From positions 15,963-79,962 of the forward strand of contig CAZFHS010000029.1 of the NCBI GenBank assembly GCA_964518955.1: a DNA stretch of 64,000 nt. The letters are read 5' to 3'. Shown in pieces: positions 9,219 through 61,776 of the stretch (the first letter of the stretch is position 1; each line of letters opens with the position of its first letter). The notes under the pieces were generated by a model that saw only the letters and a program-made list of their open reading frames with translations, was not told the DNA's origin and made no database searches. Both the position numbers and the translations under genes were made by a program. Source of the DNA: an uncultured Gemmatimonadaceae bacterium. Lineage in GTDB: Bacteria; Gemmatimonadota; Gemmatimonadetes; Gemmatimonadales; GWC2-71-9.

Positions 9219-9223
9219 GGGCG

Positions 9224-19434: not shown

Positions 19435-21117
19435 TCACTCCATATCTATGAAGCCGCAGGGGCATATTTCCGCACACTTCTTACAACCGGTGCAGTTGCC
19501 GAGCTTCCACCCGTAGAGAGTGCCTTTCTCCATCGGCTTCTCAATCGCCTGGTCCTGGCAGTACAACCAGCACTTTTCGCAGTCCATGCAATACCCGCAG
19601 CTCATGCACCGCTTGCTCTCTTCAATTGACTGCTCCTCGGTGAGCGCCAAATTCGCTTCTGCATCCATATTCGCGAAGCGCTCTTCGACCGAGAGCTTGC
19701 CTGCTTCGAGCCGATCAGCCTTTGGATAGTGATCGAGCTGCATACGATCGGTCTTGATTATCGGCTGACCGTTATCCTGCTTTTCCAGACTGCGGAACCT
19801 ACGGTCAATTGCCTCTGCAGCGTACCGGCCGTGCCCGATCGCGTCAGTCACCAGCGCGAGGTTTGTTGCATCGCCACCAGCCCAGACATTGTCGACTTTG
19901 GTCGACTCAAACTCGTCGTTCACCTTGATCCAGTCTCTGCCCTCGATGAGGGAATCGAGACCCATGAAGTCGGGTTCCTGACTGATCGCAGGGATGACCA
20001 TCGTAGCAGGGATCTCAAACTCAGACCCCTCCAAAGGCACCGGGCGCCTTCTGCCGGAGTCATCCGGCTCACCCAGTTCCATGCGGATGCACTGCATGCT
20101 CGTGATGTTGTTGCCGTCCTTGTTGAAACCGATGGGCGCGGCGAGATATTCCAGCTTTATGTCCTCTTCCTGCGCTTCCTCGATCTCTTCATCGATCGCG
20201 GGCATCTCTTTGATGGTACGGCGGTACAGGATCGTTGTTGTGGCGCCGAAACGTTTACAGATACGCGCGGCGTCGATGGCAGTGTCACCACCACCGACAA
20301 CGATGACGTTGTCTCCAACGTCTACAGTCTCACCGTGATGGACACGATTGAGGAACTCCACGCCCGACATGACGTTGTCCGCTTCCTCGCCCTCGACTCT
20401 GAGCTTCAAACCCTTCTCAGCACCGATTGCGACGAACACCGCCTGATACTCCGCACGCAGGTCGTCGAACGAAATGTCTTTGCCAACCCGAGTGTTCAGC
20501 TTCAGCTCAACACCGAGATCGACGATGTTCTGGATCTCTTTGTCGATGATGTCCGCAGGCAGCCTGTACCTCGGGATACCCCACAGCAGCATTCCGCCCG
20601 GCTTGTCAGCGGCCTCGAATACCGTAACCGAGTATCCGCGCCTCGCGAGTTGATACGCGCAAGAGAAACCTCCCGGGCCTCCACCTACAACGGCGACCTT
20701 CTCCGGGCGTTTCTCTTCGGTCATCATCTTCAACTTCAGGCCGTTGTTCAGCCCGAAGTCGCCAATAACACGCTCAACCTTGTTGATGCCTACAGCACCA
20801 TCGAGTTCGATTCTGTTGCAGCCAGTCTCACACGGGTGTGGACAAACGCGACCGCAGACGGAAGGAAACGGACTCGTGTCCGTGTAGCTCTCCCACGCTT
20901 CGGTGAAGGCCTGGTCTTTCGGCTTCTCGAGTCGCTCAGCCTGAGCGATAGTGGTCAGCCAGTCTCTGATGCGATTCCCACTGGGGCAGGCGTCTTGGCA
21001 CGGAGGTTTCTTGGTCACGTGCTTTGGTCTCAGTGGAGACTGTTCTCTGCCTCCACCGGAACTGGACGCGCTGTAATCTCGTTTCCGCTTCTTCTTCTTA
21101 GTTTTCTTTACAGCCAT
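19435..21117 (-). CDS. dsrL: NAD(P)H:acceptor oxidoreductase, GltD-like iron-sulfur flavoprotein with C-terminal ferredoxin domain (DsrL)
   Basis: N-terminal Fe-S motifs CQDACPSGN and CGRVCPHPCETGCNR. Two dinucleotide folds (VAVVGGGPGGFSCAY, VIVVGGGDTAIDAAR). C-terminal CMSCGYCMDCEKC...CTGCKKCAEICP. Position between dsrD and dsrN. Confidence 0.75.
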   Translation of the reverse strand: MAVKKTKKKKRKRDYSASSSGGGREQSPLRPKHVTKKPPCQDACPSGNRIRDWLTTIAQAERLEKPKDQAFTEAWESYTDTSPFPSVCGRVCPHPCETGCNRIELDGAVGINKVERVIGDFGLNNGLKLKMMTEEKRPEKVAVVGGGPGGFSCAYQLARRGYSVTVFEAADKPGGMLLWGIPRYRLPADIIDKEIQNIVDLGVELKLNTRVGKDISFDDLRAEYQAVFVAIGAEKGLKLRVEGEEADNVMSGVEFLNRVHHGETVDVGDNVIVVGGGDTAIDAARICKRFGATTTILYRRTIKEMPAIDEEIEEAQEEDIKLEYLAAPIGFNKDGNNITSMQCIRMELGEPDDSGRRRPVPLEGSEFEIPATMVIPAISQEPDFMGLDSLIEGRDWIKVNDEFESTKVDNVWAGGDATNLALVTDAIGHGRYAAEAIDRRFRSLEKQDNGQPIIKTDRMQLDHYPKADRLEAGKLSVEERFANMDAEANLALTEEQSIEESKRCMSCGYCMDCEKCWLYCQDQAIEKPMEKGTLYGWKLGNCTGCKKCAEICPCGFIDME

Positions 21118-44617: not shown

Positions 44618-46066
44618 CTACGACACTCCTGAGCGGAGTTGGGTCCAAGCTTTCTGACCCGCACTCGACGAGAGCCACATTTGCGCAGTGATGAGGATCG
44701 AAGATGTGAGACACCAAGCACAAGTGGCGCCAATTACAAATGGTTCCAAGAAGGTGAGGTATATGGAGAACAGCGTGCCCAATGTCGCCATGGCCAACAA
44801 AGACACTATCGCCCAGCGCGCAACTGAGTCGTTCGCGTACCGCGAGGCAGCCCATCCCAGTGCAATCGCCACATAGCCCATGAGCCCCAACGCTCCCACG
44901 GGCAACACTCCGAACAGTCTCGCGTATTCACTCTGATTGACTGTATTGCAGTCACCTACCGGCCCGCACACCGCAGTCACCCCCGTCGCTTCTATGTACG
45001 TCAGGTAGCCAGCCACACCAACCCCAATCAGAGCAAACACAGGTACCAAAAGACCTCTACTCCATTCTGCTGGCATCAAATGCGGCCTGACCCAGACTAC
45101 GATAACGCTGACGATCATTAGAACGAGGACCACAACAGAGAAACCGTTGCCAACGGGGTCGAGCTGAAAGTTCTCGATCATAGACAGATCACGTGTCGGC
45201 ACGACGTCAAAAGCCGACGGATCGACCGCATCCGAATCCGGTGCCGCTTCCACCACCTCTTCCACTGCTGTGTCTGCAGGCACCTCGGCCAACCCTTCGT
45301 CCTCAAGGTCGCTCAATTCGGCAGCTGGCGGTGTAGCCGGCGCCTGCTCGGGCATAGGCGTCTCCTCCGGCGGAGGCACCGCACTATCCACTGCCGTTGG
45401 CGCAGGTTCGGACGTAGGCGTCTCCTCCGGCAGAGGCACCGCACTATCCACGGCCACTGGCGCAGGTTCGGACGTAGGCGTCTCCTCCGGCGGAGGCACC
45501 GCACTATCTACCGTAACTGGCGCCGGTTCTGGGGCGACATCCTGCGGTTGCACTACAGCTACTTGCGCGAGTGCGGGCACTGACGCCAGAGCCTCATCCA
45601 GTCCGTCCATCACAGGCCACCCAATCCCACCATGCTCCAAGCCCTGCCGAACCAGGTCGCCGGTGCGTAGGGGAATCTCCCTTGCGCCAACCATGTACTC
45701 GTCACCGATCACCAGCCGCGGCACACCTCCTCGCTCAGGCGGGATCAGTAGGCTGCGAGCGGAGGCCATATACAGTTCGGATCCGATTGCTTTTGAAGCA
45801 TCGACGAGGAGCAGCTGCAACCTGTCATTATAAAAGAGGATCAGACCGCGTTCTGGTGGAGGAACCGATTCATCGGCTATCACACTGGGTTGCCCGCCGA
45901 ACTCCCGAAAAAGGGCCGGCAGGTAGCCTGTGATCACCTGATGGCAGTGCTGGCAGGTAGGTGAGAAAAACAGCACGGCCTGGGCCGTTTGCGCCTCAGT
46001 AGCGCGGATACCTCCTGCGATAGCCAGGAGTACGGCCAACATCGCAACTCTCCGCACAAAGCGCAT
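44618..46066 (-). CDS. thioredoxin-like domain / Pro-rich repeat linker / vitamin K epoxide reductase (VKOR) fusion protein
   Basis: Start taken at ATG 46066 (MRFVRRVAMLAVLLAIAGG signal). Thioredoxin-like FFSPTCQHCH. C-terminal 4-5 transmembrane VKOR domain with VCGPVGDC and CAWC motifs. Confidence 0.75.
   Translation of the reverse strand: MRFVRRVAMLAVLLAIAGGIRATEAQTAQAVLFFSPTCQHCHQVITGYLPALFREFGGQPSVIADESVPPPERGLILFYNDRLQLLLVDASKAIGSELYMASARSLLIPPERGGVPRLVIGDEYMVGAREIPLRTGDLVRQGLEHGGIGWPVMDGLDEALASVPALAQVAVVQPQDVAPEPAPVTVDSAVPPPEETPTSEPAPVAVDSAVPLPEETPTSEPAPTAVDSAVPPPEETPMPEQAPATPPAAELSDLEDEGLAEVPADTAVEEVVEAAPDSDAVDPSAFDVVPTRDLSMIENFQLDPVGNGFSVVVLVLMIVSVIVVWVRPHLMPAEWSRGLLVPVFALIGVGVAGYLTYIEATGVTAVCGPVGDCNTVNQSEYARLFGVLPVGALGLMGYVAIALGWAASRYANDSVARWAIVSLLAMATLGTLFSIYLTFLEPFVIGATCAWCLTSSILITAQMWLSSSAGQKAWTQLRSGVS
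45351..45528. repeat. coding tandem repeat, about 3 x 60 nt
   Basis: Three near-identical 60-nt units encode PAPVTVDSAVPPPEETPTSE / PAPVAVDSAVPLPEETPTSE / PAPTAVDSAVPPPEETPMPE in the VKOR fusion linker. Boundaries approximate. Confidence 0.85.
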
Positions 46067-46116
46067 CTTCGATACCTCGCCGTACAGTTTGCCACTTTGC
46101 TGCCGGCAAGAGTGGT

Positions 46117-46593
46117 TCAGCCCAGATTCCCAGCTCGACCGTCGCTTCGGCTTGGGAACGAGAGGGTGAACTTCAGCTCGCCGACACCGTCGCTCTCCCA
46201 AAGCAACGATCCCCCCTGCCCTTCAATTATGTCTCTCACGATCGGAAGCGGAAGCCCCGTGCCTGCCTTTTTCAATTTCTCGGTAAACAACGAATCGTGA
46301 GGTCGACGATTACCGCCATCTTGGTCTTCAGCGCCAAAGGTAGCGACAGTGACTATCACTGCCCCTTCAGAATCGGCTTTGCTGACAATGTTCACGACTC
46401 CGACGCCATGCAAATGGGAAACCGCATTCACTATCATCGAGAAGAACACGTAGCGGAGCAGCGAACTATCGGCGTGTACGGATTCGACCATCGGGTCCAG
46501 TGCCTGAACCAACTGTATCTTCGAAAGCGGTATCCGCTCCGCGGCATACAGCTCCGCGGCTTCGATGACTTCGTTCACCAATACCGATTCCAT
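46117..46593 (-). CDS. stand-alone HATPase_c (histidine-kinase-like ATPase) domain protein without H-box
   Basis: N-box-like IVNAVSH and G2-box GTGLPLPIVRDIIEGQGGSL. Start moved to ATG 46593 (MESVLVNEV) to avoid an 82-nt overlap with the CGGC gene. No HisKA region is present. Confidence 0.5.
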   Translation of the reverse strand: MESVLVNEVIEAAELYAAERIPLSKIQLVQALDPMVESVHADSSLLRYVFFSMIVNAVSHLHGVGVVNIVSKADSEGAVIVTVATFGAEDQDGGNRRPHDSLFTEKLKKAGTGLPLPIVRDIIEGQGGSLLWESDGVGELKFTLSFPSRSDGRAGNLG

Positions 46594-46619
46594 CCTAGCC
46601 TCGTCCTCCACCGCATTCG

Positions 46620-47048
46620 TCAGTCGTACGCACAACGAGTCTCCTCGGTCGATAGCAGCTCGTGCCGAGCCCCGAGTTCCGGCCACGATGACAACTCGCA
46701 ATGGATTTTGCGGTACTTCTCAGGAATCGGATGTGTTCCTAAAACAACGGGAACGTTGAACTTCTTTTCCACGAAGGATTTGAAGTATTCGGTGTAGGGA
46801 CACGGAGGGTACCCCACCACGAGACCAGTGGCCAGGTGAATTGCCTCGGCGCCGTTGTTGATCATCTCTTCCGGGGCATATTCGATATTTCCGCCAGGGC
46901 AACCTCCACAACTCACGAAGCCAATCACCTCCAGGTCGGCCTCTGAGGAGTATTTCGCAAATGCCCCCTCTCGTTCCCGCACGGAACGGAAACACTTGCC
47001 GCCCGCACAATCGCTGTACCTGTCGCAAATGATGATGCCAACCTTCAT
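46620..47048 (-). CDS. CGGC-domain protein
   Basis: MKVGIIICDRYSDCAGGKCF... and FVSCGGCPG (the CGGC motif). Start ATG 47048 with SD GGAGGA. Confidence 0.75.
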   Translation of the reverse strand: MKVGIIICDRYSDCAGGKCFRSVREREGAFAKYSSEADLEVIGFVSCGGCPGGNIEYAPEEMINNGAEAIHLATGLVVGYPPCPYTEYFKSFVEKKFNVPVVLGTHPIPEKYRKIHCELSSWPELGARHELLSTEETRCAYD

Positions 47049-47078
47049 ATCAATCCTCCAAGGCATGCTTTTAACAAC

Positions 47079-47417
47079 TCAGTGATCACAGGTGTTTTCT
47101 CCCACTTCGAGAGTCCCGTTCAGGTGCGCCAGGACGAGTTCATCGGGCTTCTCGGGCGGAGCACCCACTATCACGTCGATGCCTTGCTCAGCGAACAGTC
47201 CTTTCGCCCTTCCGCCCATCCCACCCGCGATCACCACATTTGCGCCTCGATCGGCGAGCCACCTCGGCAGCAAACCCGGCTGGTGGGGAGGAGCGTCGAC
47301 CTCTCCTCGTTCCGTGATCTTCATCGAATCGGTGTCAGCATCTATCAGAGCGAAGCTCTGGCAGTGGCCAAAGTGAGAGCACAGCCTTCCATCGGCCAGC
47401 GGAATTGCAAACCTCAT
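47079..47417 (-). CDS. NifX/NifB-C-terminal-like (dinitrogenase FeMo-cofactor-binding fold, MTH1175-like) protein
   Basis: MRFAIPLADGRLCSHFGHCQSFALIDAD... and VIAGGMGGRA, typical of the PF02579-type small proteins. Confidence 0.8.
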   Translation of the reverse strand: MRFAIPLADGRLCSHFGHCQSFALIDADTDSMKITERGEVDAPPHQPGLLPRWLADRGANVVIAGGMGGRAKGLFAEQGIDVIVGAPPEKPDELVLAHLNGTLEVGENTCDH

Positions 47418-47469
47418 GATCTCAAACTCCTTCCTTGTTTTCCCAAGCTCTGTTCCGGAACCGGAGCAC

Positions 47470-48396
47470 TCAACAACCGATCCCTCTTTGCATGCAAATA
47501 TCCCGCACCTTCATCCACACATTCCGCATATCGTCAGAGGCAGCTCCTCCAGCCTCCGTTGCTGATCTAGCTTCGAGCTGTGACTGCGTTACCATCTCGT
47601 CGTACCTCACCCTCCCTGCAACATCAGCATTCAACTCGATCGCCCTCTGCTCGATCCGGTCTGCCATTGCCGGGTTCACGTCCCACTTGTTGATGCATAT
47701 TGCCGCCGGGATCCCAAAGTGCTTCGTCAGTTGAAGGACCCGTTCGAGATCGTGTTCACCCGAGACGGTCGGTTCAGTGACGATTAGCACCATCGACGCG
47801 CCCGTCACGGATGCGATCACGGGACAGCCGACACCGGGCGGCCCATCGACAATGACCAACGAATACCCTCGCACGGCTGCCACCTTCTGAGCTTCCGTGC
47901 GGACGGTCGCCACCAATTTCCCCGAGTTCCCCTCCGCAATTCCCAACCTCGCGTGCACCATCGGGCCGGCGCGCGTATCAGAGATGAACCACTCTCCGCA
48001 ATTCCGTTCGGGGAACTCGATTGCTTCCTGGGGGCAGAAGCGCACGCATACACCGCAGCCCTCACAGGCTATGGGATCGATCGAGTAGAGGCCGTTTCCA
48101 TCGCTGTTGCCATTGGTGGAAACCGCTCCAAACCGACAATGCGAGAGGCAGTCGCCGCATTCGATACAGAGTTCGTTGCGGATGTTGGCCACGCGTCCGC
48201 TGACAAACGGTTCCAGTCGGATCACGTCCGGTGATAGGAGTAAGTGGAGGTCGGCAGCATCAACATCGCAATCCGCCAACACCGCATTCTCCGCGAGAGT
48301 CGCAAACGAGGCGACGATGCTCGTCTTGCCGGTACCACCTTTGCCGCTAATGACCACCAGCTCCGGTGTGCGGGAGGGCACTCGAGTCTGCATCAT
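47470..48396 (-). CDS. MinD/ParA-superfamily P-loop ATPase with inserted 4Fe-4S ferredoxin domain (COG1149-like)
   Basis: Deviant Walker A VISGKGGTGKTS. Inserted CIECGDCLSHC ... CEGCGVCVRFCP. ATGA overlap with the upstream paralogue. Confidence 0.85.
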   Translation of the reverse strand: MMQTRVPSRTPELVVISGKGGTGKTSIVASFATLAENAVLADCDVDAADLHLLLSPDVIRLEPFVSGRVANIRNELCIECGDCLSHCRFGAVSTNGNSDGNGLYSIDPIACEGCGVCVRFCPQEAIEFPERNCGEWFISDTRAGPMVHARLGIAEGNSGKLVATVRTEAQKVAAVRGYSLVIVDGPPGVGCPVIASVTGASMVLIVTEPTVSGEHDLERVLQLTKHFGIPAAICINKWDVNPAMADRIEQRAIELNADVAGRVRYDEMVTQSQLEARSATEAGGAASDDMRNVWMKVRDICMQRGIGC

Positions 48397-49295
48397 TGCC
48401 CCCCTCCCGAACCGTCGACGACGCCCGCCGCCAGAGCGTGTTCGTCAATCATTCCGGCGCCTCGACAGTGGTCGACGATTGCCTGCCAAAGAGTCTCGAA
48501 CTCTAAACGGCATTCTGGTAATCCTTCGATCATCGTCTGACCACGGGAGTACGCCTCGGCAACACGCCTGTCGTTTGGAATCTCGAGAAACACTGGGATG
48601 TTCTCTGCACGGCAATACTCCGACACACGATTGTCTCCAACCCCGGCCCTATTGATGACCACTCCAAACGGTATGCGCATCTCCCGAACCGCCCCGACTG
48701 CAAGCGACAGATCCGCCAGTCCAAACGGAGTTGGTTCCGTGACCAACACGACTATGTCGCAGTCGCGTACAGCTTCAATCACTGGACAGGACGTACCGGG
48801 CGGAGAGTCGATGATCGTCGTACCACCTGCGTCGGCCCGCTGTTTGACGGCCGAGATGAGGGGCGGTGACATCGCTTCACCGACGTTGAGCTTGCCTTGT
48901 ATGAACTCGATCTCCCCAGCCCGGCCCTTCTCAACTACCCCGATCGGCCGTTCTACCTCGCTGATCGCGCCCGACGGGCAAACCTTCGCGCACCCTCCAC
49001 AACCATGACACAGTTCCGGAAATACCATGGCGGTGGTCCCGAGCGAAATGATGGCGTTGAACTCACAGAAGTTGCCGCATTCCCCGCACGCTGAGCACAG
49101 CGACTCGTCCACGCTGGGAATGGGTATGCCGATCGTTTCTGAATCCTCGAGCTCCGGCGAGAGAAAGAGTGCGCAATTGGGTTCCTCGACATCGCAGTCG
49201 AGCAATTGCACGCGCCCCGGCACGACCTGGGCGAGATTCACGGCAACCGTGGTTTTCCCAGTGCCACCCTTTCCTGACGCAATGGCGACTCTCAT
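48393..49295 (-). CDS. MinD/ParA-superfamily P-loop ATPase with inserted 4Fe-4S ferredoxin domain (paralogue)
   Basis: Start at ATG 49295 (MRVAIASGKGGTGKTTVA), directly abutting the DUF89 stop. CSACGECGNFC ... CHGCGGCAKVCP. Confidence 0.85.
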   Translation of the reverse strand: MRVAIASGKGGTGKTTVAVNLAQVVPGRVQLLDCDVEEPNCALFLSPELEDSETIGIPIPSVDESLCSACGECGNFCEFNAIISLGTTAMVFPELCHGCGGCAKVCPSGAISEVERPIGVVEKGRAGEIEFIQGKLNVGEAMSPPLISAVKQRADAGGTTIIDSPPGTSCPVIEAVRDCDIVVLVTEPTPFGLADLSLAVGAVREMRIPFGVVINRAGVGDNRVSEYCRAENIPVFLEIPNDRRVAEAYSRGQTMIEGLPECRLEFETLWQAIVDHCRGAGMIDEHALAAGVVDGSGGGQ

Positions 49296-50173
49296 CGCTG
49301 CACCGCACTCGCGGCTTCTGGTTCCCAGTGTCTGACCAACCAATCGCCCACATCTGCTTCCAGACTGCGAGCGATCACCGGGCATTTGACCTGTGTCAGA
49401 AAGAAGACTTCTCGGTCACAATCGTTCAACGTTTCGATGTTCGCCTGACCTTTGGCGATCACGAGGTCTGCTGTATCGAAAATCTCGCGGAAGCCGGGGC
49501 TGCAGAGTTCCAAGATCGTACCAGGTGCGTCGGAGCCAGTATCGACCACACGGGCGATACGATTGATGCCGACTGCTTCGGCATCTTCACGTATTGCGTC
49601 ATTGATCACTGGACCACCTTTAACGGCATAGGTCACCGACTTTGCCGGCATTTGCTCGATCAGAACTCGGTCGAATACCGTCTCTCCAGCATTGTCTCCT
49701 ATGATCAAGACATTGGTCGCGCTCACAGCGGAATCTCGAAGCTCACGCACAGCATCATCATCGAGCGGCGTTGACAGCGCGTCGTCAAAGCAACTGTTGA
49801 TCTTATCCAGATCCCACGCTGAGGTGAGCGCGTAATCCATCACGTTGCCGGCTATCGCAAACCGTACCGCAGCATTGAACGGATCGATTTGGCGTTCAAC
49901 TGTGTTCACTACTCGTTCGTACAGACTCAGTGCGGCCCTGGTCGATTTGCGTTTTATGCTCTCGTACGGATCGGCAGAACCCGTGACTTCCCGGATGATT
50001 TTGTGGATCTCCCGGCCCATGTATGGCGGTGGCATATCCAAACGCAGGTGGTTGGTTGCTTCGAGCACGCGGCGCATCACACGCTCAGCGACAGCGTCAT
50101 CATCAGACACCATGCGCGACGCCTCGAGTGCCTGACGAAGGAAGCACGGGATACAATCGAGATAGGTTTTCAA
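49292..50173 (-). CDS. DUF89 (ARMT1-like damage-control phosphatase) family protein
   Basis: The MKTYLDCIPCFLRQALEA N-terminus and overall size (293 aa) are typical of DUF89. Confidence 0.75.
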   Translation of the reverse strand: MKTYLDCIPCFLRQALEASRMVSDDDAVAERVMRRVLEATNHLRLDMPPPYMGREIHKIIREVTGSADPYESIKRKSTRAALSLYERVVNTVERQIDPFNAAVRFAIAGNVMDYALTSAWDLDKINSCFDDALSTPLDDDAVRELRDSAVSATNVLIIGDNAGETVFDRVLIEQMPAKSVTYAVKGGPVINDAIREDAEAVGINRIARVVDTGSDAPGTILELCSPGFREIFDTADLVIAKGQANIETLNDCDREVFFLTQVKCPVIARSLEADVGDWLVRHWEPEAASAVQR

Positions 50174-50176
50174 GAT

Positions 50177-50539
50177 CTACGTCCAGTGTCCTTCAACGTC
50201 CGCGGATTTGCTCGGTTTGACCTCGCCAGCCTTCAGCTTCTCCACCGCTTCGGCCACCGTCCCTTCAACGCCCGTGACGACCTTGATGCCGGCCGCTTCG
50301 AGTGCTCGGAACGCTTTCGGCCCGCAATGACCGGTTATCAGATACTCAGCGTTTCTGCTAGAAATCGTTTGTGCAGCTTGGATACCTGCACCCTGTGGCG
50401 CGCTGAAGTTCTGAGCGTTGTCGATCGTTTCATGTTCCCCGGTTTCTGTGTCGACGAGGACGAAGCTCGCAGCGCGCCCGAATCTCGGATCAATCGCTGA
50501 ATCGAGTGTCGTACCCACCGATGATACTGCGACTTTCAT
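50177..50539 (-). CDS. NifX/NifB-C-terminal-like (MTH1175-like) protein
   Basis: MKVAVSSVGTTLDSAIDPRFGRAASFVLVDTETGE... and ITGHCGPKAF motifs. Confidence 0.8.
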   Translation of the reverse strand: MKVAVSSVGTTLDSAIDPRFGRAASFVLVDTETGEHETIDNAQNFSAPQGAGIQAAQTISSRNAEYLITGHCGPKAFRALEAAGIKVVTGVEGTVAEAVEKLKAGEVKPSKSADVEGHWT

Positions 50540-50633
50540 CGTTGCCCTCTTTCATTACCTGGTTTCGTTGACCACCGCGGGCGAGGAAGGGCCGATGCCA
50601 GAGCCCTCCCCCGACGGAGCCCACGATGATCCT

Positions 50634-51107
50634 TCATACGGCATTGATCCCCCTACCAGCTACACATCTGCCACCGCCTCCACCACCAGTTCTACGATTC
50701 CCGTCCGTTCGCTTGAACGTGCGGCCCGCGCACCCTGGACATGCCTCCGGCCTGCCCGTTCCGAACGGCTCCTGCCACTCATGCCGGCATTCGAAGCAGC
50801 TGAACCTTCTCATCCCCGCCATTTCGACATCACCACCTTCGATTCGTATAGACATGCCTTCGACCAACGCCTGTGCGACTTTCTTCCTGGCAGACGAGAC
50901 GATCCTCCCGAATGTCTGGCGGGATACTTTCATCTGCTCGGCGGCATGTTCTTGATACAGACCCTCGAAATCAGCGAGCCGGATTGCTTCCAGTTCGTCG
51001 ATCTCAAGCACCAGTTCCTTCAGGCGCGACACAGGTACCCCGGCTGGCTTGAATAGCGCGCATCCCGGAAGTCCTCCAACTGTCCTGCATCGTCTTGGTC
51101 GCGGCAT
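50634..51107 (-). CDS. DUF134 (UPF0251) DNA-binding protein with C-terminal zinc-ribbon and Gly/Arg tail
   Basis: MPRPRRCR...FKPAGVP...[37 protein letters not shown] is the family signature. Then CFECRHEW...CPGC and a GGGGGGR tail. Start ATG 51107. Confidence 0.8.
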   Translation of the reverse strand: [157 protein letters not shown]

Positions 51108-51133
51108 AACACCTACCGACAAGGGTTCACTAC

Positions 51134-51168
51134 AATTATGGGCATATGCTCATAATTTCTCAAGATAC
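51134..51168 (-). promoter_or_regulatory. putative promoter with overlapping 24-bp palindrome upstream of the DUF134 gene
   Basis: The minus strand reads TTGAGA (51163..51158), a 17-nt spacer, then CATAAT (51140..51135). The near-perfect palindrome AATTATGGGCATATGCTCATAATT (51134..51157, 22/24) covers the spacer and the -10 element. Confidence 0.4.
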
Positions 51169-51289
51169 GTATTTACCGAAACGGCTGGTTGCACTGATCA
51201 GTACGCATAGGAATCTTTGGGTTGGCTGATTGCGGTTTACGTCATGTCTTGAACCTTCGCGTTAGTTGATCTCTTGTAGGAGGAAGTGA

Positions 51290-52894
51290 ATGAGCGCGGG
51301 CAATCAATTCTCTGCTCTTTGGAAGACTGAAGACTGGTGGGCTGTTTGGGTGGGCTTCGCGATCTTGGTCTTTGCGGTCTTAGTGGCTGGCATCGGCTAC
51401 GGCATCAAAGCACCCAAGGTGGAGCGGTGGACGAGCAGTCCGCTCGACGCGTTCTACAGCGACGTAACCGTCCGCGTGGTTGATTGGCCGGCAAACCTTC
51501 CGTCCGGCGTGTCATTCTCTTCTGAGCTTCCCAGTACAACTGTTACTCGCTTCAAATACACCCGCAAAGTTGGATATCAAGAGGGCCGCCGCACAGTATC
51601 AGAAACGATAGGATGGAAATCCCGCTATCAGATGAGCGACACAGACCGGGATGCACTTCTCGCGTTGGTCTCAGTGCCGGCCCACATAGACGCAATAGAC
51701 GACCTCTATGGAAGGGCGCAGTCACCGCGAGCAAACTTCCTGGCCATCGCGATCTTGCTAGTGGCAATGGGCGCAGCATTCGCTATCGCGGTACAGCACA
51801 TGGGTGAAAAGGGCAACACATTTTCCGCCGGATACGCAGTGGTGTTCGTCCTCTCTATTCTAGCCTACTTCCTATCAACCCAAACGTCGATCAGTGCGTA
51901 CGGGCTTCCATATGCCATGTGGGCACTGGTTTTCGGATTGCTGATCAGCAACACGATCGGGACGCCGGCGTGGCTGCTTGCGGGCTCAAAGACAGAGCTC
52001 TTCATCAAGACGGGACTGGTGCTCCTTGGCGCCGAGATCCTGTTCGCCAAAATAGTGGTGCTGGGAGCGCGAGGCCTGATGGTGGCATGGGTGGTGACAC
52101 CAACGGTTCTCATCTTCATGTACTTCTTTGGCACTCGATTCCTGAAGATGTCGAGCAAGGCCCTCGTTATTATCGTCGCAGCCGCAACGAGCGTGTGCGG
52201 AGTATCCGCCGCGATTGCCACCGCGGCTGCATGCAAAGCAAAGAAAGAAGAATTGACTCTCGCCGTTGGCATGACGCTCATCTTCACCGTTTTGATGATG
52301 GTCGGTATGCCTCCCATCATCAAAGCAGCCGGCATGAGCGAACAGGTAGGTGGTGCGTGGATGGGAGGCACCATCGACGCAACTGGAGCTGTTGTGGCCG
52401 CGGGAGCACTTCTCGGTGACAACGCAGAGGTGGTTGCCGCGGTTGTCAAGATGATTCAGAACATTCTGATCGGCGTGGTCGCCTTCTTCGTCGCAATCGC
52501 GTGGGTCACGAAGATCGATCGTGATCCCAATGCACCCCGACCAAGTGCGATGGAGATCTGGTATCGATTCCCGAAGTTCATCGTTGGATTCATTGCCGCA
52601 TCGTTGGTCTTCTCATTCATTCTCATTCCTGCCTTCGGCGGCGGCCAGGAGGGACTCAACGCCGTCGATCGAAACGTCATCGGTGCAATAACCAAGACGT
52701 GCCGTGGATGGCTCTTCTGTTTGGCGTTTGTGGCTATTGGCCTCGAGAGCAACTTCCGGCAACTGGCCTCACAAATGGCTGGGGGCAAACCGATAATTCT
52801 CTACTTAGTCGGGCAGAGTTTCAACCTAATTCTCACTCTACTCATAGCGTACATCGCATTCGGGGGATGGTTGCTGAATGCAGTAGTGCTATGA
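51290..52894 (+). CDS. YeiH/UPF0324-family membrane protein (putative sulfate-exporter-family transporter) with long N-terminal insertion
   Basis: Polytopic. C-terminal CLAFVAIGLESNFRQL...GGKPIILYLVG resembles the UPF0324 signature. About 110 aa of non-hydrophobic sequence sits between the first and second helix. Confidence 0.6.
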   Translation: MSAGNQFSALWKTEDWWAVWVGFAILVFAVLVAGIGYGIKAPKVERWTSSPLDAFYSDVTVRVVDWPANLPSGVSFSSELPSTTVTRFKYTRKVGYQEGRRTVSETIGWKSRYQMSDTDRDALLALVSVPAHIDAIDDLYGRAQSPRANFLAIAILLVAMGAAFAIAVQHMGEKGNTFSAGYAVVFVLSILAYFLSTQTSISAYGLPYAMWALVFGLLISNTIGTPAWLLAGSKTELFIKTGLVLLGAEILFAKIVVLGARGLMVAWVVTPTVLIFMYFFGTRFLKMSSKALVIIVAAATSVCGVSAAIATAAACKAKKEELTLAVGMTLIFTVLMMVGMPPIIKAAGMSEQVGGAWMGGTIDATGAVVAAGALLGDNAEVVAAVVKMIQNILIGVVAFFVAIAWVTKIDRDPNAPRPSAMEIWYRFPKFIVGFIAASLVFSFILIPAFGGGQEGLNAVDRNVIGAITKTCRGWLFCLAFVAIGLESNFRQLASQMAGGKPIILYLVGQSFNLILTLLIAYIAFGGWLLNAVVL

Positions 52895-53228: not shown

Positions 53229-53480
53229 TTATTCCTCGGGTTCTCTGCGCCAGAACCTGAAGCCGCGACCGCGACCACGACCTCCTAAGCCAAGGCCTCT
53301 ACCGCCACCGCGCCCGCCCCAGCCAGCACCGCGGCCTCGTCCGAAGCCAAAGCCGAACCCGCCACCGCGACGAGGCCCCGACTCGGTGGACCCAGGTTCG
53401 TCGTTGCCGGCACAGTAACCCGCACCACGCCCGGTCCTCGGTCCCCTGCCCTCTGGGCCTGTCCTGTCACCACCAGGCAT
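53229..53480 (-). CDS. DUF5320 family protein with Gly/Arg-rich tail
   Basis: The MPGGDRTGPEGRGPRTGRGAGYCAG N-terminus is the family signature. Start ATG 53480 with SD GAAGGAGGTG. The tail reads GGGFGFGFGRGRGAGWGGRGGGRGLGLGGRGRGRGF. Confidence 0.7.
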   Translation of the reverse strand: MPGGDRTGPEGRGPRTGRGAGYCAGNDEPGSTESGPRRGGGFGFGFGRGRGAGWGGRGGGRGLGLGGRGRGRGFRFWRREPEE

Positions 53481-53495
53481 CTTACTCACCTCCTT

Positions 53496-53969
53496 CTAAG
53501 CTTGATCTTCCTTCTTGTGTGTCTTCCGCTCCTCACGCTTCATGGCAGAGAGGAGATTGTCTATTTCAGTTCGCGTTCTCACCAGGTCTTGCTTCCACGC
53601 GGTGACAACGTCTTCTCCATCTCCAGTCAGGGAGTAGACGCGGCGCCTTGGCCCGAGGCTCTCATCGCCCCACTGCGACTGAACCAAGCCCTCTTCCTCC
53701 ATGTCACGCAGGGCTCTGTAGACGACGCTAGGGTCCATACCTTCGGTGTTGATGCCGAGTTCCTCCAAACCCTGCAGGAGGTTATAGCCGTGGTCATTGT
53801 CACGGCGGAGCAACGTCAACAGCGCGGGTCGCAGGAAACCCATTCCCTGCCGACGGCGGCCACGACCTGCTCCTCTACCACCGCCTGCTCCTCTTCCCAT
53901 ACCTCTACCACCACCTGCACCTCCACCGCCGCCGGCACCTCTGCCCCTGCCTCTTCCGCCTGGACTCAT
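53496..53969 (-). CDS. PadR-family transcriptional regulator with Gly/Arg-rich N-terminal extension
   Basis: Winged-helix core LRPALLTLLRRDNDHGYNLLQGLEELG...PSVVYRALRDMEEEGLV. The N-terminal 40 aa are almost exclusively G/R. SD AAGGAGGGG. Confidence 0.75.
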   Translation of the reverse strand: MSPGGRGRGRGAGGGGGAGGGRGMGRGAGGGRGAGRGRRRQGMGFLRPALLTLLRRDNDHGYNLLQGLEELGINTEGMDPSVVYRALRDMEEEGLVQSQWGDESLGPRRRVYSLTGDGEDVVTAWKQDLVRTRTEIDNLLSAMKREERKTHKKEDQA

Positions 53970-55266: not shown

Positions 55267-55442
55267 CTACACTAAGCAGAGGCAGATCGGTCAGACATTC
55301 GCAATTGCCATTAGAATCACTGCGGAAAATACGGATCTTGCGAAATCGCTGGTTGTCTGTTCGATATCCGTGGGTCACTACGTGACCCTCGCGCCAGTAT
55401 GTGCACGGCGGCCCCTTTGGAATGCACCTAGGAGATGAGTGT

Positions 55443-56174
55443 ATGGCGATATTAGATGATTTGCTGGTCTCGTTGGAAATGAATGCACCGGTCAGGGACA
55501 TCAGCCTCGGTTTGTTTCATACTGGTGTCCTCACGCGCAATTGTGGGCTGGCCTCTACGCTTCCGCGCGATGCCTTGAAGGAGAGACCACTATTCCATCC
55601 CCTCGTTCAAGAGGCCGGCTTTCTGTTGGATAAGTCGGCAGAAGAACTCACCCAACTCGCGTACTCAGACAACCTGCCGGAAGCCACCATCGGGATGGCG
55701 ACCGTGAATTCCCTCATCGACGTCGACGAGGCACGGTGCACCGAACTGAACGCTGGGGACCTGATAGCCGAGAAAGGCAATGGAAAGAAGGTAGCAATCG
55801 TAGGCCATTTCCCATTCGTCCCCAAAATGCGGGAAATCGCTGGAGAGTTGTGGGTGATCGAGAAGAATCCGGAAGAGGGGGATCTCGAGGAAGCAGCGGG
55901 ACAGCAAGTCTTGCCTGATGCTGACGTCGTCGGCATAACCGGTGCGACCTTGACCAACCACACATTCGACGAGGTGATTGGTCTATGCCGTTCGGATGCG
56001 TACGTGGTGTTGCTCGGTGACTCGACCCCGCTTTCGCCGGTGCTATTCGACCACGGCGTCGATGCGGTAGCAGGTACCCTGGTAACCGATGCCGAGCTGG
56101 CATTGCGTTGTGTAAGCCAAGGGGCAACGTTCCGCCAGATCAAAGGGAGGCGGTTGTTGACGATGACGAGGTAA
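55443..56174 (+). CDS. DUF4213/DUF364 (putative heavy-metal-chelation Rossmann-like) protein
   Basis: MAILDDLLVSL...VRDISLGLFHTGVLTRNCGLAST and KKVAIVGHFPFV, typical of the family. Start at ATG 55443 preferred over the track start. Confidence 0.65.
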   Translation: MAILDDLLVSLEMNAPVRDISLGLFHTGVLTRNCGLASTLPRDALKERPLFHPLVQEAGFLLDKSAEELTQLAYSDNLPEATIGMATVNSLIDVDEARCTELNAGDLIAEKGNGKKVAIVGHFPFVPKMREIAGELWVIEKNPEEGDLEEAAGQQVLPDADVVGITGATLTNHTFDEVIGLCRSDAYVVLLGDSTPLSPVLFDHGVDAVAGTLVTDAELALRCVSQGATFRQIKGRRLLTMTR

Positions 56175-57130: not shown

Positions 57131-57299
57131 AGGCCGTGTGGCGACTTAGCTAGTCTCACCTGTCAGCCATTGCTCAGCTTGTATCACGACATGGAACAAC
57201 GCTGAACTCCAACCTCGTCGCCATGAGTTGGCCATGTTTGCTGGGCTCCGGCTGACACTCTCTTACGTGTCCAAGCAAAGCAGATCACTGGAGCAAGGT

Positions 57300-58235
57300 A
57301 TGTCACCGGATTCCGAACGACCCTCCGCTGTGGTCGACCATCCACAGCAGCGAACAGACACAGCAGACTTATGTGGTACCTGCGACAGTAGCTCGTGCAC
57401 TGCGAAACAAAGGCGCACAGGTGAGTCGGACAAAGACTTTGAGGAGCGGCAGAAGCTGGAGAACCGGCTCTGTGCCATCAAACACAAAATCCTCGTGCTT
57501 TCAGGAAAGGGAGGTGTGGGCAAGAGCACTGTGGCAGTGAACCTCGCTGTCTCACTCGCACGATCAGGAAACAAGGTCGGTCTGCTAGACGTCGACGTAC
57601 ATGGACCGAGCATTCCCACCCTTCTCGGAATGACCGGTCACCGCCCGGAGGGTGACGGCCAGAATCTACTACCGATCCACATGACCAAGAACCTCTCGGT
57701 CATGTCCATCGGGCTCTTGGTGGAAGACCAGAATGCCGCGGTCATTTGGCGTGGCCCCATGAAGTACGGAATGATTCGCCAATTCCTGCGGGATGTGGCC
57801 TGGGGTGAGTTGGACTATCTCGTAATGGATGCACCGCCCGGAACCGGTGACGAGCCTCTTGCTGTTGCGGAATTGGTTGGCTCGGGAACGGGGGCAGTGA
57901 TCGTGACTACGCCACAGGACCTGGCGATCGCAGATGTGCGGCGCAGCGTGTCGTTCTGCAGAGATGTATCGCTCCCTGTATTTGGGATCATTGAGAACAT
58001 GAGCGGTTTTGCATGTCCCAAATGCGGGGACGTAGTAAACATCTTCAATGCCGGAGGCGGCGCAAAGCTCGCCCGGGAGATGCACGTTCCCTTCTTGGGA
58101 ACAATCCCAATCGATCCAACGATCGCAGCATCAGGTGATGCCGGTACTCCGTTCATCGAAGCAGACACCGAGCCTGCAGTTACATCTGCGTTCACCGAAG
58201 TTGCATCAGCCATAACTGATCAAATCAGTAGCTGA
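57300..58235 (+). CDS. Mrp/NBP35/ApbC-family Fe-S cluster carrier ATPase with Cys-containing N-terminal extension
   Basis: VLSGKGGVGKSTVAVNLA deviant Walker A and the CPKCG cluster-ligand motif. N-terminal CGTCDSSSC. Start ATG 57300 after GGAGCAAGG. Confidence 0.9.
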   Translation: MSPDSERPSAVVDHPQQRTDTADLCGTCDSSSCTAKQRRTGESDKDFEERQKLENRLCAIKHKILVLSGKGGVGKSTVAVNLAVSLARSGNKVGLLDVDVHGPSIPTLLGMTGHRPEGDGQNLLPIHMTKNLSVMSIGLLVEDQNAAVIWRGPMKYGMIRQFLRDVAWGELDYLVMDAPPGTGDEPLAVAELVGSGTGAVIVTTPQDLAIADVRRSVSFCRDVSLPVFGIIENMSGFACPKCGDVVNIFNAGGGAKLAREMHVPFLGTIPIDPTIAASGDAGTPFIEADTEPAVTSAFTEVASAITDQISS

Positions 58236-58296: not shown

Positions 58297-58893
58297 ATGG
58301 CGAAAAAAGCGAAGAAGGCACGCTGCAGCCTCTGCAATAAGCACGAATGCAAACACGACCAGAAGGACTGCTTCGATTCGAGAGAGACACACCTCGCCGT
58401 GTACGACGAGCAGACCAAACATCTCCACAGGGCCGCAACCGCGATCGAGGGCAGGCATTACTGCCAGGCGCCGAGGCTTCAGGAAATCATGTTGTTCGCC
58501 AAAGAGGCAGGATTCCGGAAACTCGGCCTGGCGTTCTGTATCGGGCTGGCAGACGAGGCTCGCGTCATCGACCAGACCCTGGCGAAAGAATTCGAGATCG
58601 TTTCCGTTTGCTGCAAGCTTTCTGCGATTGACAAGCGCACACTCGACCTGGAGCAGATAGACTCAGATGCAGAAGAGGTAATGTGCAATCCTGCGGGCCA
58701 GGCCGAGATCCTCAACCGTGCCGGAACCGAATTGAATATCATTTGCGGTCTATGCGTCGGTCATGACGCGATCTTCTCAATGAAATCGGATGCACCAGTG
58801 ACCACGCTGATAGCCAAAGATCGGGTTCTAGCGCACAACCCGATCGGGGCAGTATACAATCAGTATGTGAGGAAGCGTTTCTTCGAGCAGTAG
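58297..58893 (+). CDS. DUF1847 family metal-binding protein
   Basis: N-terminal CSLCNKHECKHDQKDC and the ICGLCVGHDAIF...APVTTLIAKDRVLAHNP block that I associate with DUF1847. Confidence 0.65.
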   Translation: MAKKAKKARCSLCNKHECKHDQKDCFDSRETHLAVYDEQTKHLHRAATAIEGRHYCQAPRLQEIMLFAKEAGFRKLGLAFCIGLADEARVIDQTLAKEFEIVSVCCKLSAIDKRTLDLEQIDSDAEEVMCNPAGQAEILNRAGTELNIICGLCVGHDAIFSMKSDAPVTTLIAKDRVLAHNPIGAVYNQYVRKRFFEQ

Positions 58894-58905: not shown

Positions 58906-59817
58906 TCAGAACTTGAGGCTCATGCCGGCTGGACACGTCCGACCGTGCTGTCCAAACGCCTTTGCGAAGGCCAGAAACCCTCGAGCTCCGGTACAATGCC
59001 CTACGTAGGCATATCTGATACCGAAGCGCTCCTTGGCCACCATGACATTCTCCTGCAACGTGATGTAGTCGGCTCGCGCGAGATGCGTGCCTCCAATTAT
59101 GGCGTGAATATCGCAGGAGAATGTAGCCTGGATGTGCTCCAGAGTGTTTACCAAGCCTGCATGGCAGCATCCGAGGAGGACGACAGCGCCATGGCGGCCC
59201 ATCAAGACGAGTGACTGATCGTCCAAGAGCGGGTCTGCGACTACCTCATTCCCCTGTTTGATCAAGAGTCTGGCATCACGTGGCTCCGACCCGTTGCCTC
59301 TCGGAATCTGGCCCGTAGTGTATATGGCGGGCGCAACCTCAACAGGATCTCTCGTCAAACGCAGTCGGCAGTTGGACTCGAGGTATTCCCGTCTGAGTGG
59401 CATTCCGATCTCTTTGTTCACTCCGGATTCTGTACGAGCCAAACGTTCATCGAATATGGCCGGGTGGGCGAAGAGTTCGACATCACCAGCAAGCGTTAGT
59501 ACTCGCTCCAGCCCTCCGGTGTGATCATAGTGACCATGGCTCAAGACTACGCCGGACAGATCTTTCAGGTTTTTTTCCAACACTGAGAGGTTATGTGCCA
59601 GTACATCTCCAGACTGACCGGTATCAAACAGAACTTTGGTTTCAGCCCGTTCTACCAGGAACGCCGAACCATGTTCGGCCCACAGTCCCGACCTGAGATC
59701 GGCGGTGTTGTCAACTAGACAGGTAACGCCGATTTCGGGCGCGTGTTCGAGATCACGTTGAATGTCGTTCAACTTTTCCTCATCCATGCAAAACTTGATG
59801 TTTATCCTCCCAGCCAC
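58906..59817 (-). CDS. MBL-fold metallo-hydrolase
   Basis: VVLSHGHYDHTGG metal-binding motif, plus downstream CCHAG and HC..A motifs. Confidence 0.8.
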   Translation of the reverse strand: MAGRINIKFCMDEEKLNDIQRDLEHAPEIGVTCLVDNTADLRSGLWAEHGSAFLVERAETKVLFDTGQSGDVLAHNLSVLEKNLKDLSGVVLSHGHYDHTGGLERVLTLAGDVELFAHPAIFDERLARTESGVNKEIGMPLRREYLESNCRLRLTRDPVEVAPAIYTTGQIPRGNGSEPRDARLLIKQGNEVVADPLLDDQSLVLMGRHGAVVLLGCCHAGLVNTLEHIQATFSCDIHAIIGGTHLARADYITLQENVMVAKERFGIRYAYVGHCTGARGFLAFAKAFGQHGRTCPAGMSLKF

Positions 59818-60756: not shown

Positions 60757-60786
60757 GTGTACTCCAACACGCCTGTTCGCAAAGGG

Positions 60787-61776
60787 ATGGCAATGAAATA
60801 CGTATTTGGCCCGGTACCATCATGGCGACTGGGTCAGTCGTTGGGAGTTGATCCGGTTCCACTCAAGACCTGCAATTGGAACTGTGTGTACTGCCAGCTA
60901 GGTAGAACGAAGCCGGTCACGATGCGGCGGGCTAATTACGTTCCGGTACGTGATGTGATTGACGAAGTCCGAGTCGCCCTGGAAAGCAACGCAACGACGA
61001 AGATCGATTGGATAACATTCGTCGGTTCGGGCGAAACCCTGCTCCACGCGAAGATTGGCTGGATGCTACGAGCGGTGAAGGATCTCACCGACATTCCAGT
61101 GGCCGTTATCACAAACGGATCGCTGTTGTACCAGCCCTACGTGCGTTGGGAACTGGCCGTAGCCGATGCCGTTCTCCCGAGTTTGGACGCCGGAAACGAT
61201 TCACTGTACCACAGGTTGAATCGCGCCCACCGAGCAGCATCCTTTAGCCTACATCGCGACGGCCTAGTGGCGTTTCGAAACGGGTACCTTGGTCAGCTGT
61301 GGATCGAAGTGATGCTCGTTCACGGACTCAACGATGGTGAAACCGAGCTCAGTGAGATCGCATCGTTATTGAGGCAGATCAGGCCGGACCAGATTCACAT
61401 CAACGGTCCATCCCGGTCATCCGTCGAGTCGTGGGTGAAACGTCCGGATGCAGACACTGTGCTGAGAGCATCACGCGTTTTCGGCAATGTCGCACCAACT
61501 AGAGTGGTACGCTCTTCAGAGGGCGTTTGTGAGTTGCCGACTGACCAGTCAGTTGTTGATGCAGTGGTTCAAGTCGTTACTCGACACCCGTTGCGTCGTT
61601 CCGACTTGGAGAACGCTCTTGCCCGCCTAGAACCTCACGAGGTTGGTAGAAACATGGCGCTGCTCGAGAAAAGCAATCAGCTTCAGGTTGTCGTTCGGGA
61701 TGGTACGGAGTATTGGGTTTCCGCGGCGGCTTTCTTTCCTGAGAATGGAAACGGCGCCACCACCTTCGTGGCGTGA
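60787..61776 (+). CDS. radical SAM protein
   Basis: GPVPSWRLGQSLGVDPVPLKTCNWNCVYCQLG (CxxxCxxC). Glycine-rich SAM motif FVGSGETLL. Start is ATG 60787 or 60793. Confidence 0.8.
   Translation: MAMKYVFGPVPSWRLGQSLGVDPVPLKTCNWNCVYCQLGRTKPVTMRRANYVPVRDVIDEVRVALESNATTKIDWITFVGSGETLLHAKIGWMLRAVKDLTDIPVAVITNGSLLYQPYVRWELAVADAVLPSLDAGNDSLYHRLNRAHRAASFSLHRDGLVAFRNGYLGQLWIEVMLVHGLNDGETELSEIASLLRQIRPDQIHINGPSRSSVESWVKRPDADTVLRASRVFGNVAPTRVVRSSEGVCELPTDQSVVDAVVQVVTRHPLRRSDLENALARLEPHEVGRNMALLEKSNQLQVVVRDGTEYWVSAAAFFPENGNGATTFVA

Follow-up and report, generated by a model that had tools for sequence, protein, structure and literature searches.

The gene cluster of the orange protein (ORP) system of Desulfovibrio is the closest described counterpart of the locus reported here, a block of seven genes in a 64,000-nucleotide (nt) stretch of DNA from an uncultured Gemmatimonadaceae bacterium (assembly GCA_964518955.1, contig CAZFHS010000029.1, positions 15,963 to 79,962; this whole stretch is referred to below as the window, and all positions are those of the window). 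Few anaerobe-specific gene sets without an agreed function are as widespread as the ORP system. In Desulfovibrio, the proteins Orp3, Orp4, Orp5, Orp8 and Orp9 have been purified as a complex, ORP homologues were shown to hold a non-covalently bound linear [S2MoS2CuS2MoS2] cluster, Fe-S clusters were transferred in vitro from MrpORP (Orp9) to Orp3/Orp4, and the orp operons were found to depend on sigma-54, the regulator OrpR and integration host factor; a morphology phenotype has led to the hypothesis of a role in cell division (PMC6345978, PMC8359166, PMC3897727). Other proteins of the NifX fold also bind inorganic metal-sulfides: NifX, NafY and NifB bind precursors of the iron-molybdenum cofactor (PMC6345978, PMC5524996), and IssA of Pyrococcus furiosus binds linear thioferrate, which its cationic Gly/Arg/aromatic tail has been proposed to wrap (PMC5524996).

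Judged by its sequence, the seven-gene block at 46620-51107 is a variant of the Desulfovibrio ORP cluster (Table 1). The first-pass annotation of this DNA had recognized seven minus-strand genes of these families, and both the open reading frames (ORFs) and the Pfam matches bore this out. It had also described the set as functionally unassigned, which holds in so far as no definitive cellular function has been published, but not for the core, which is the named and experimentally studied ORP system. The best solved relative of the ORP homologue was the D. gigas ORP itself (2WFB; 93.7 bits, E 7e-26), with 50% identity over 107 amino acids (aa). The second NifX-like protein matched positions 265-365 of the NCBIfam MrpORP model (125 bits) and has the motif CSHFGHCQ close to the N-terminal end and CDH at the C-terminal end; these correspond to CXHFGHCE and CDH, the motifs described for MrpORP's Di-Nase domain (PMC6345978). 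By these matches it is the likely counterpart of the C-terminal Di-Nase domain of MrpORP (Orp9). This 112-aa Cys/His protein could alternatively correspond to Orp5, a small Fe-S protein; both Orp5 and the Orp9 C-terminus are candidates because Dde_3197, an Orp5 homologue, has been reported as distantly NifX-like (PMC10533852). Both NifX-like proteins of the block are acidic (isoelectric point (pI) 5.0-5.3) and have no cationic tail.

The N-terminal half of MrpORP is encoded as well, by a detached Mrp/NBP35-type gene 10 kb from the block and on the opposite strand. Its product scored 383 bits over positions 3-250 of the 365 positions of the MrpORP model, and 255 bits against ApbC. Neither half alone reached the MrpORP cutoff of 450, and no single-protein fusion was found in the window; the two halves are separate genes. 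Among the related loci described below, Mrp and the Di-Nase domain were fused in 14 cases, split but adjacent in 22, and the Di-Nase domain occurred without Mrp in 10. As split genes outnumbered fused ones, the arrangement of the window represents a common state.

The two ATPases of the block fit the description of Orp3 and Orp4 (paralogues with two [4Fe-4S] motifs each; PMC6345978), with which they were compared by description. They share 29% identity (46% positives), and each consists of a P-loop domain of the MinD/ParA type with an inserted 2x[4Fe-4S] ferredoxin domain (two CxxCxxCxxxC motifs). The deviant Walker A motif GKGGTGKT and the eight ferredoxin cysteines are invariant in both, as are two further cysteines, namely C34 (LLDCDVEE, after strand 2) and C170 (PPGTSCP), the latter three residues past the switch II glycine. 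In an AlphaFold2 (AF2) model of ATPase A (predicted local distance difference test (pLDDT) score 90), the closest solved folds were those of archaeal MinD, FlhG, ApbC and ATPase-type HypB, archaeal MinD being the top match in both sequence and fold; no solved structure was found for members of the ATPase A family. The NCBIfam models minD_bact (30-40 bits, cutoff 213) and minD_arch (43-56 bits, cutoff 202) were both missed, and Fer4_NifH, at 20.8 bits, also stayed under its cutoff, so the ATPases did not qualify as MinD or as proteins with NifH-level similarity.

ATPase A was matched at E<=1e-30 by 897 representatives of clusters formed at 50% identity, out of the 1.84 billion in the library searched. 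Among the 150 best of these, at least 31 were natural A-B fusions of about 600 aa with two matched stretches (in the range P0370-P0411), which preserve the gene order; in P0370, the N-terminal half was 52% identical to A and the C-terminal half 51% identical to B. Given these fusions in gene order and the near-obligate pairing of the two genes, we infer that A and B act as a heterodimer, which may bind an additional cluster at the C34/C170 site.

Table 1. Features of the ORP-type block and of its partner genes in the window, with the proportion of fully flanked related loci (n=33) in which the family was found
Feature	Position	Strand	Details	Fully flanked loci
DUF134 (UPF0251)	50634..51107	-	157 aa; Pfam DUF134 E 5e-24	27%; heads cluster
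ORP/Orp8 homologue, NifX-like fold (Nitro_FeMo-Co)	50177..50539	-	120 aa; Pfam E 4e-25	100% (33/33)
DUF89/ARMT1-type metal-dependent phosphatase	49292..50173	-	293 aa, TTG start; Pfam E 1e-63	15%
ATPase A, CbiA/ParA with two Fer4 motifs, Orp3/Orp4-like	48393..49295	-	300 aa	
ATPase B, CbiA/ParA with two Fer4 motifs, paralogue of A	47470..48396	-	308 aa	97%
Second NifX-like protein (Nitro_FeMo-Co), Cys/His-bearing	47079..47417	-	112 aa; Pfam E 4e-20	42% (stand-alone Di-Nase)
CGGC-domain protein	46620..47048 preferred (ORF 46620-47066)	-	142 aa; Pfam E 4e-29	24%
HATPase_c, stand-alone	46117..46593	-	158 aa; 26 nt past CGGC gene	
Sigma-70-like promoter, TTGAGA-17 nt-CATAAT	51135..51163	-	28 nt upstream of DUF134 ATG	
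22-bp palindrome ATTATGAGCATATGCCCATAAT ('DUF134 box')	51135..51156	.	covers promoter spacer and -10	
DUF5320 protein	53229..53480	-	Pfam DUF5320 E 2e-11	
PadR regulator	53496..53969	-	pairs with DUF5320 gene	
DUF364/DUF4213 ('heavy-metal chelation')	55401..56174	+	DUF364 homologues in 4 ORP loci	
Mrp/NBP35 P-loop Fe-S carrier, detached N-terminal half of MrpORP (Orp9)	57228..58235	+	10 kb from block	64%
DUF1847, Cys-rich	58297..58893	+	homologues in 4 ORP loci	
Metallo-beta-lactamase (MBL)-fold hydrolase	58906..59817	-	Pfam	
Radical S-adenosylmethionine (radical-SAM) enzyme	60757..61776	+	Pfam Radical_SAM	

The genes of the block are tightly spaced. The DUF134 gene is separated from the ORP gene by 94 nt (as read from the sequence) and the latter from the DUF89 gene by 3 nt; ATPase B and the second NifX-like gene are 52 nt apart, and the last junction measures 12 or 30 nt, depending on the choice of the CGGC start. 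The first-pass annotation had pointed to ATGA coupling of the two ATPase genes; this overlap was confirmed, and the DUF89/ATPase A pair was found to be coupled in the same way. For the CGGC protein, the start at 47048 is favoured by homologues and by a good Shine-Dalgarno sequence, and the TTG start of the DUF89 gene at 50173 is supported by an alignment to PH1575 that runs from residue 1. No minus-strand intrinsic terminator was predicted inside the block, and the co-directional run extends downstream beyond it through the HATPase_c gene, a VKOR-family gene and a DUF4405 gene. Genes functionally linked to the block also lie at 53.2-61.8 kb, outside the interval originally annotated. As had been stated, no nitrogenase gene is present among the annotated ORFs of the window.

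The conservation of this arrangement was analysed in 80 related loci (one genome per species), obtained by a scan with an ATPase A alignment and encoding ATPase A proteins with 52-65% identity; the window proteins were searched against their six-frame ORFs. The labels of these loci span more than 12 phylum-level names and include Deltaproteobacteria/Smithella, Acidobacteriota, Planctomycetes, Ignavibacteria, Kiritimatiellia, Chloroflexota and Bacillota. Frequencies of the individual families were determined in the fully flanked set, i.e. the 33 loci in which both flanks extend for 6 kb or more (Table 1). The most frequent gene orders were ORP-A-B and ORP-A-B-Mrp-DiN (Di-Nase). All seven families together with Mrp were detected in two loci, L006 and L011 (the distance from the DUF134 gene to the downstream ATPase A gene exceeds 8 kb in L011). 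In close relatives (73-80% protein identity) the gene order of the window is kept exactly, and so are the downstream HATPase_c, VKOR and DUF4405 genes and a divergent YeiH-like gene.

Three Desulfovibrio-like metagenomic loci (L081-L083) were recovered via homologues of the D. gigas ORP. In the nearest relatives of the latter, the cluster reads DUF134, a Gly-Arg-Gln-rich protein, ORP, A, B, an HFGHC-type NifX-like protein and a zinc-ribbon protein. As the first-pass annotation had stated, the set recurs in anaerobes. The core is syntenic in the 80 loci and across many phyla; this synteny, together with the identical gene order at 73-80% identity, excludes a chance juxtaposition of the genes.

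The DUF89, CGGC and DUF134 families were each found in only 15-27% of the fully flanked loci, which argues that they are accessory and not essential to the core reaction. Homologues of the DUF89 protein were detected in 13-14 of the 80 loci and those of the CGGC protein in 12-14. The DUF89 protein (Pfam, 215 bits) matches PH1575 (2G8L) in the DN.GE and KGQ.N stretches; its substrate class cannot be transferred, since it scored 174 against an NCBIfam equivalog cutoff of 440. The CGGC protein has six invariant cysteines (C8, C14, C19, C47, C50, C83) and three invariant histidines (H71, H106, H116), and probably binds a metal or a cluster; a comparison of its model (pLDDT 74) with solved folds gave no significant match. 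The DUF134 protein contains a helix-turn-helix resembling sigma-70 region 4 (a weak Sigma70_ECF region-4 match) and seven cysteines, among them N-terminal ones and those of a C-terminal CxxC...CxxC tail. When this tail was tested as a Zn_ribbon_8/Orp5-like domain, only weak generic zinc-ribbon matches were obtained (E 0.01-0.3). A search of the literature on DUF134/UPF0251/COG1342 revealed nothing relevant.

The upstream region of the DUF134 gene carries the sole promoter-like site detected in the interval 45900-51500, TTGAGA-17-CATAAT, which matches the consensus at 10 of 12 positions. A 22-bp palindrome, ATTATGAGCATATGCCCATAAT, with a 16-bp core, ATGAGCATATGCTCAT, at 51138-51153, extends over the spacer and the -10 element of this promoter. 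The full palindrome had a single match in the window (0 expected by chance), and no further copies were found there, e.g. before the Mrp or radical-SAM genes. Across three lineages, ATTATGAGCATATGCCCATAAT and a neighbouring block, GTTTCGGTAAATAC, are invariant, whereas the remaining intergenic DNA has diverged. The 16-bp core was used to scan 87 loci (1.24 Mb) with up to 2 mismatches. This yielded 13 matches, as compared to 0 in shuffled sequence, and 10 of them were located directly upstream of DUF134 genes, 25-45 nt before the start codons. With a relaxed core, the box was present at 12 of 18 DUF134 genes under several phylum-level labels. Its register is constant, between a TTGnnn -35 element and the -10, and the -35/17/-10 geometry recurs in the related loci.

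The recurrence of the palindrome upstream of DUF134 genes in several phyla makes DUF134 the likely regulator and the palindrome the likely operator. We therefore suggest, from this co-occurrence, that DUF134 binds the palindrome and autoregulates the cluster in place of OrpR. The three remaining core sites hint at a small regulon: they precede (i) ORP in L083 (7960-7975), (ii) a DUF59 Fe-S assembly gene followed by ATPase A in L073 (43-58), and (iii) a PAS-domain gene, possibly OrpR-like, in L022 (1070-1085). Neither a sigma-54 -24/-12 motif in the intergenic region upstream of DUF134 nor a Sigma54_activat/enhancer-binding protein (OrpR) among the window ORFs was found. The nearest sigma-54-like sites, two matches with 2 mismatches, lie inside the DUF134 coding sequence, and the counts across the whole window were at chance level. 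The second invariant block, GTTTCGGTAAATAC (51168-51181, minus strand), is situated just upstream of the -35 element and is kept in the close relatives L084 and L086. It could be another operator or part of the promoter of the divergent YeiH-like gene.

To identify further partners, every window ORF was searched against the 80 loci. Homologues of Mrp were present in 65 of them. The radical-SAM enzyme had homologues in 33 loci (29 on the same strand within 6 kb), its gene often being located directly between those of ATPases A and B, and the MBL-fold hydrolase in 25 (18 on the same strand within 6 kb). The radical-SAM enzyme is an uncharacterised protein that carries a CxxxCxxC motif and is of winged-helix appearance in its C-terminal part; it gave only weak NCBIfam matches, to viperin, MoaA and W-cofactor maturase, and no solved relative was found. 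Homologues of the DUF5320 protein were encoded in 33 loci, mostly a short distance upstream of ORP; the one encoded in the window ends in a 48-aa tail (pI 12) that contains 21 Gly, 12 Arg and 7 aromatic residues. A partner with a DUF59 Fe-S assembly domain was seen in one locus (L073).

In comparison with the D. vulgaris Hildenborough orp cluster, which comprises Orp3, Orp4, Orp5, Orp7, Orp8, Orp9/MrpORP and OrpR, the block shares (i) an ORP/Orp8 homologue, (ii) paired [4Fe-4S] MinD-type ATPases, (iii) both MrpORP domains with their Cys/His motifs, and (iv) the restriction to anaerobes. The core is already known, and the variant consists in the single operon, the DUF134/sigma-70 control, the split MrpORP and the added DUF89 and CGGC genes. 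One co-directional operon replaces the two divergent operons of D. vulgaris; a sigma-70-like promoter, the palindrome and DUF134 stand where D. vulgaris has OrpR and sigma-54; and the MrpORP halves lie 10 kb apart on opposite strands, whereas they form a single protein there. This variant is widespread in databases; we found no discussion of it in the searchable literature, although the 2011 founding ORP paper may note accessory associations.

Maturation of the nitrogenase cofactor offers a parallel in its NifX-fold carriers, its dimeric SIMIBI-class Fe-S ATPase and its radical-SAM enzyme, the last of which is present in about a third of the related clusters and, in the window, elsewhere than in the block. 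However, the window has no nifHDK/EN, its ATPases have a ferredoxin domain inserted and fall far short of the NifH model in score, and its radical-SAM enzyme is not NifB. With IssA, the locus shares the IPR003731/PF02579 fold that binds an inorganic linear metal-sulfide anion. The NifX-like proteins did not qualify as IssA-type, since the cationic Gly/Arg/aromatic tail is here found on the separate DUF5320 protein; in addition, the locus encodes paired ferredoxin-ATPases, none of which is reported with IssA in PMC5524996. The ATPases resemble Mrp/ApbC/NBP35, ATPase-type HypB and CooC in fold, in the deviant Walker A (GKGGxGKT) and in the conserved cysteine near switch II, where these relatives bind a metal or a cluster at the dimer interface. 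They differ from MinD/ParA-class metallochaperones by the inserted 2x[4Fe-4S] domain and by forming an obligate, sometimes fused A/B pair with no solved structure.

We consider it probable that the block, as a one-operon variant of the anaerobe-specific ORP system, serves the ATP- and electron-driven handling of metal-sulfide clusters. The paralogous MinD/NifH-class ATPases A and B would form a heterodimer in which the two extra invariant cysteines of each ATPase adjoin switch I and switch II, and which would couple ATP hydrolysis to electron transfer. This SIMIBI-class dimer, with four [4Fe-4S] clusters, might assemble, reduce or transfer a metal-sulfide unit. The metal-sulfide species would be carried, non-covalently or via Cys/His residues, by the ORP homologue and the Di-Nase protein, while the distant Mrp P-loop protein would load the ATPases with [4Fe-4S] clusters. 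DUF89, CGGC, the radical-SAM enzyme and the MBL-fold hydrolase may provide optional, lineage-dependent tailoring or accessory steps. Expression would start from the sigma-70-type promoter, with DUF134 bound to the palindrome over the spacer and the -10 element and so regulating its own operon. The earlier suggestion of a machine for assembly or insertion of a metallocluster fits the evidence, and the radical-SAM, Mrp and DUF59 partners lend it indirect support. If the system does handle a new metal-sulfide cofactor, this would matter for the Fe-S and metal biology of anaerobes.

Several points weigh against this interpretation. The Mo-Cu cluster of ORP can form in vitro from thiomolybdate and copper, and its physiological relevance is debated. 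The biochemical function proposed here for Orp3/Orp4-type ATPases is a prediction, the DUF134-palindrome pairing is drawn from co-occurrence, and DUF89, CGGC and DUF134, at their observed frequencies, cannot be essential to the core. Moreover, the 80 loci represent the top matches to a single anchor protein and do not form a random sample. Finally, the sole phenotype in Desulfovibrio is an altered cell morphology, which its authors read as a role in cell division (PMC8359166, PMC6345978).

According to that original proposal, the ORP proteins would be a MinD-like spatial system placing the septum or divisome, with the Fe-S domains acting only as redox inputs. The MinD/ParA class of the ATPases and their top match, archaeal MinD, agree with it, as do the morphological defects of D. 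vulgaris lacking OrpR and, in consequence, the Orp proteins, and the localization of MrpORP at the cell pole (PMC8359166, PMC6345978). However, the bacterial MinD scores given above are low, carriers of the NifX fold and Mrp are the constant partners, often joined by a radical-SAM enzyme, with no division genes among the recurrent neighbours, and a morphology defect could arise indirectly from a defect in a metalloenzyme. Cofactor chemistry is favoured by the frequent radical-SAM and Fe-S-assembly partners, and a purely spatial role seems to us quite unlikely. Somewhat more credible, though still unlikely, is storage or detoxification, in which thiometallates arising spontaneously in a sulfidic cytoplasm (thiomolybdate/copper or thioferrate) would be bound by proteins of the NifX fold and by cationic partners rich in Gly/Arg. 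Precedents are the linear Mo-Cu-S cluster on ORP and the linear thioferrate that IssA stores via a cationic tail; the resemblance of the DUF5320 tail to that of IssA, in a family recurring in the ORP loci as noted above, keeps this explanation alive. In D. alaskensis G20, transcripts of Dde_3197-3199 co-vary with those of feoA and flavodoxin and respond to copper surfaces (PMC10533852). Storage alone would nevertheless not account for a pair of ATPases with four [4Fe-4S] clusters, nor for a radical-SAM enzyme or an Mrp carrier; the labels of many host lineages do not mark them as sulfidogens, and the cationic tail is missing from both NifX-like proteins of the window. This explanation is partly compatible with ATP- and electron-driven cluster handling.

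The sulfate-reduction genes of the window suggest another role, the dedicated maturation of the Dsr, Apr and Qmo enzymes. The window encodes dsrAB, dsrMK(J)OP, dsrN, a DsrL-like protein, sat, qmoABC, aprAB and cobA/hemD. In both the window and the related lineage L086, no more than a few kb separate the cluster from aprBA, cobA/hemD, qmoABC, sat and dsr genes, and one close relative again has it next to aprBA; furthermore, MrpORP abundance was lowered in a DsrC-perturbed strain of D. vulgaris (PMC6470260). The first-pass annotation had stressed this neighbouring pathway with its high demand for Fe-S clusters and siroheme. The adjacency is real, but the implied link is not conserved: no homologues of Sat, AprA, AprB or DsrAB were found within 10 kb in any of the 80 loci, which shows that the adjacency is lineage-specific. 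The cluster is also widespread in hosts labelled as lineages not known for sulfate reduction, such as Smithella, Planctomycetes, Ignavibacteria and Kiritimatiellia. A general link of the cluster to sulfate reduction was thus rejected, and a dedicated maturation role is highly improbable.

Beyond ATP- and electron-driven cluster handling, we tentatively propose, with considerable doubt, that the ORP core and its recurrent partners (the radical-SAM enzyme, Mrp, MBL, DUF89 and CGGC proteins) constitute an orphan pathway of cofactor maturation in anaerobes, one that builds, remodels or inserts a complex metal-sulfur cofactor or a linear thiometallate, and that DUF134 is a Cys-based metal or redox sensor acting on the promoter palindrome in many lineages. 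The comparison provides several handles on the system, namely the A/B fusions, the radical-SAM enzyme as a frequent internal member, the candidate DUF134 operator, which offers a way to define the regulon, and an MrpORP that is more often split than fused. We infer the chemistry of the heterodimer, its substrate and the roles of DUF89, CGGC and the radical-SAM enzyme.

In the related ORP loci, the radical-SAM gene (e.g. L007 11028-12062, L010 7777-8817 and L011 11110-12066) is sometimes accompanied by genes for phosphatidylserine-decarboxylase-like and methyltransferase-like proteins. In the window, the DUF364/DUF4213, MrpORP-type P-loop, DUF1847 and MBL genes form a second metal-related sub-cluster, 4-11 kb from the block, and all four have homologues inside ORP clusters of other genomes. 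The PadR regulator encoded next to the DUF5320 gene has a 45-aa Gly/Arg stretch at its N-terminus.

Elsewhere in the window, the gene for the DsrL-like NAD(P)H oxidoreductase (19435-21117, minus strand) adjoins dsrAB, a minus-strand ORF at 14096-16051 encodes a 651-aa protein combining a ferrochelatase domain with a glutamyl-tRNA reductase N-domain, and a four-gene NiFe-hydrogenase set (7162-11172, minus strand) resembles the soluble sulfhydrogenase type. Named matches of individual window proteins vary in their affiliation, between Gemmatimonadota, Zixibacteria and Desulfobacterales. Downstream of the block, the HATPase_c protein corresponds to a histidine-kinase catalytic domain without the H-box region; its position after the CGGC gene is kept in the close relatives L084-L086, and it is not adjacent in the 80 distant loci. 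The VKOR-family gene contains three copies of a 60-bp unit (90% matches) at 45348-45529, which encode a Pro-rich linker (AVPPPEETPTSEPAP...) joining an N-terminal CxxC thioredoxin-like part to the membrane VKOR domain.

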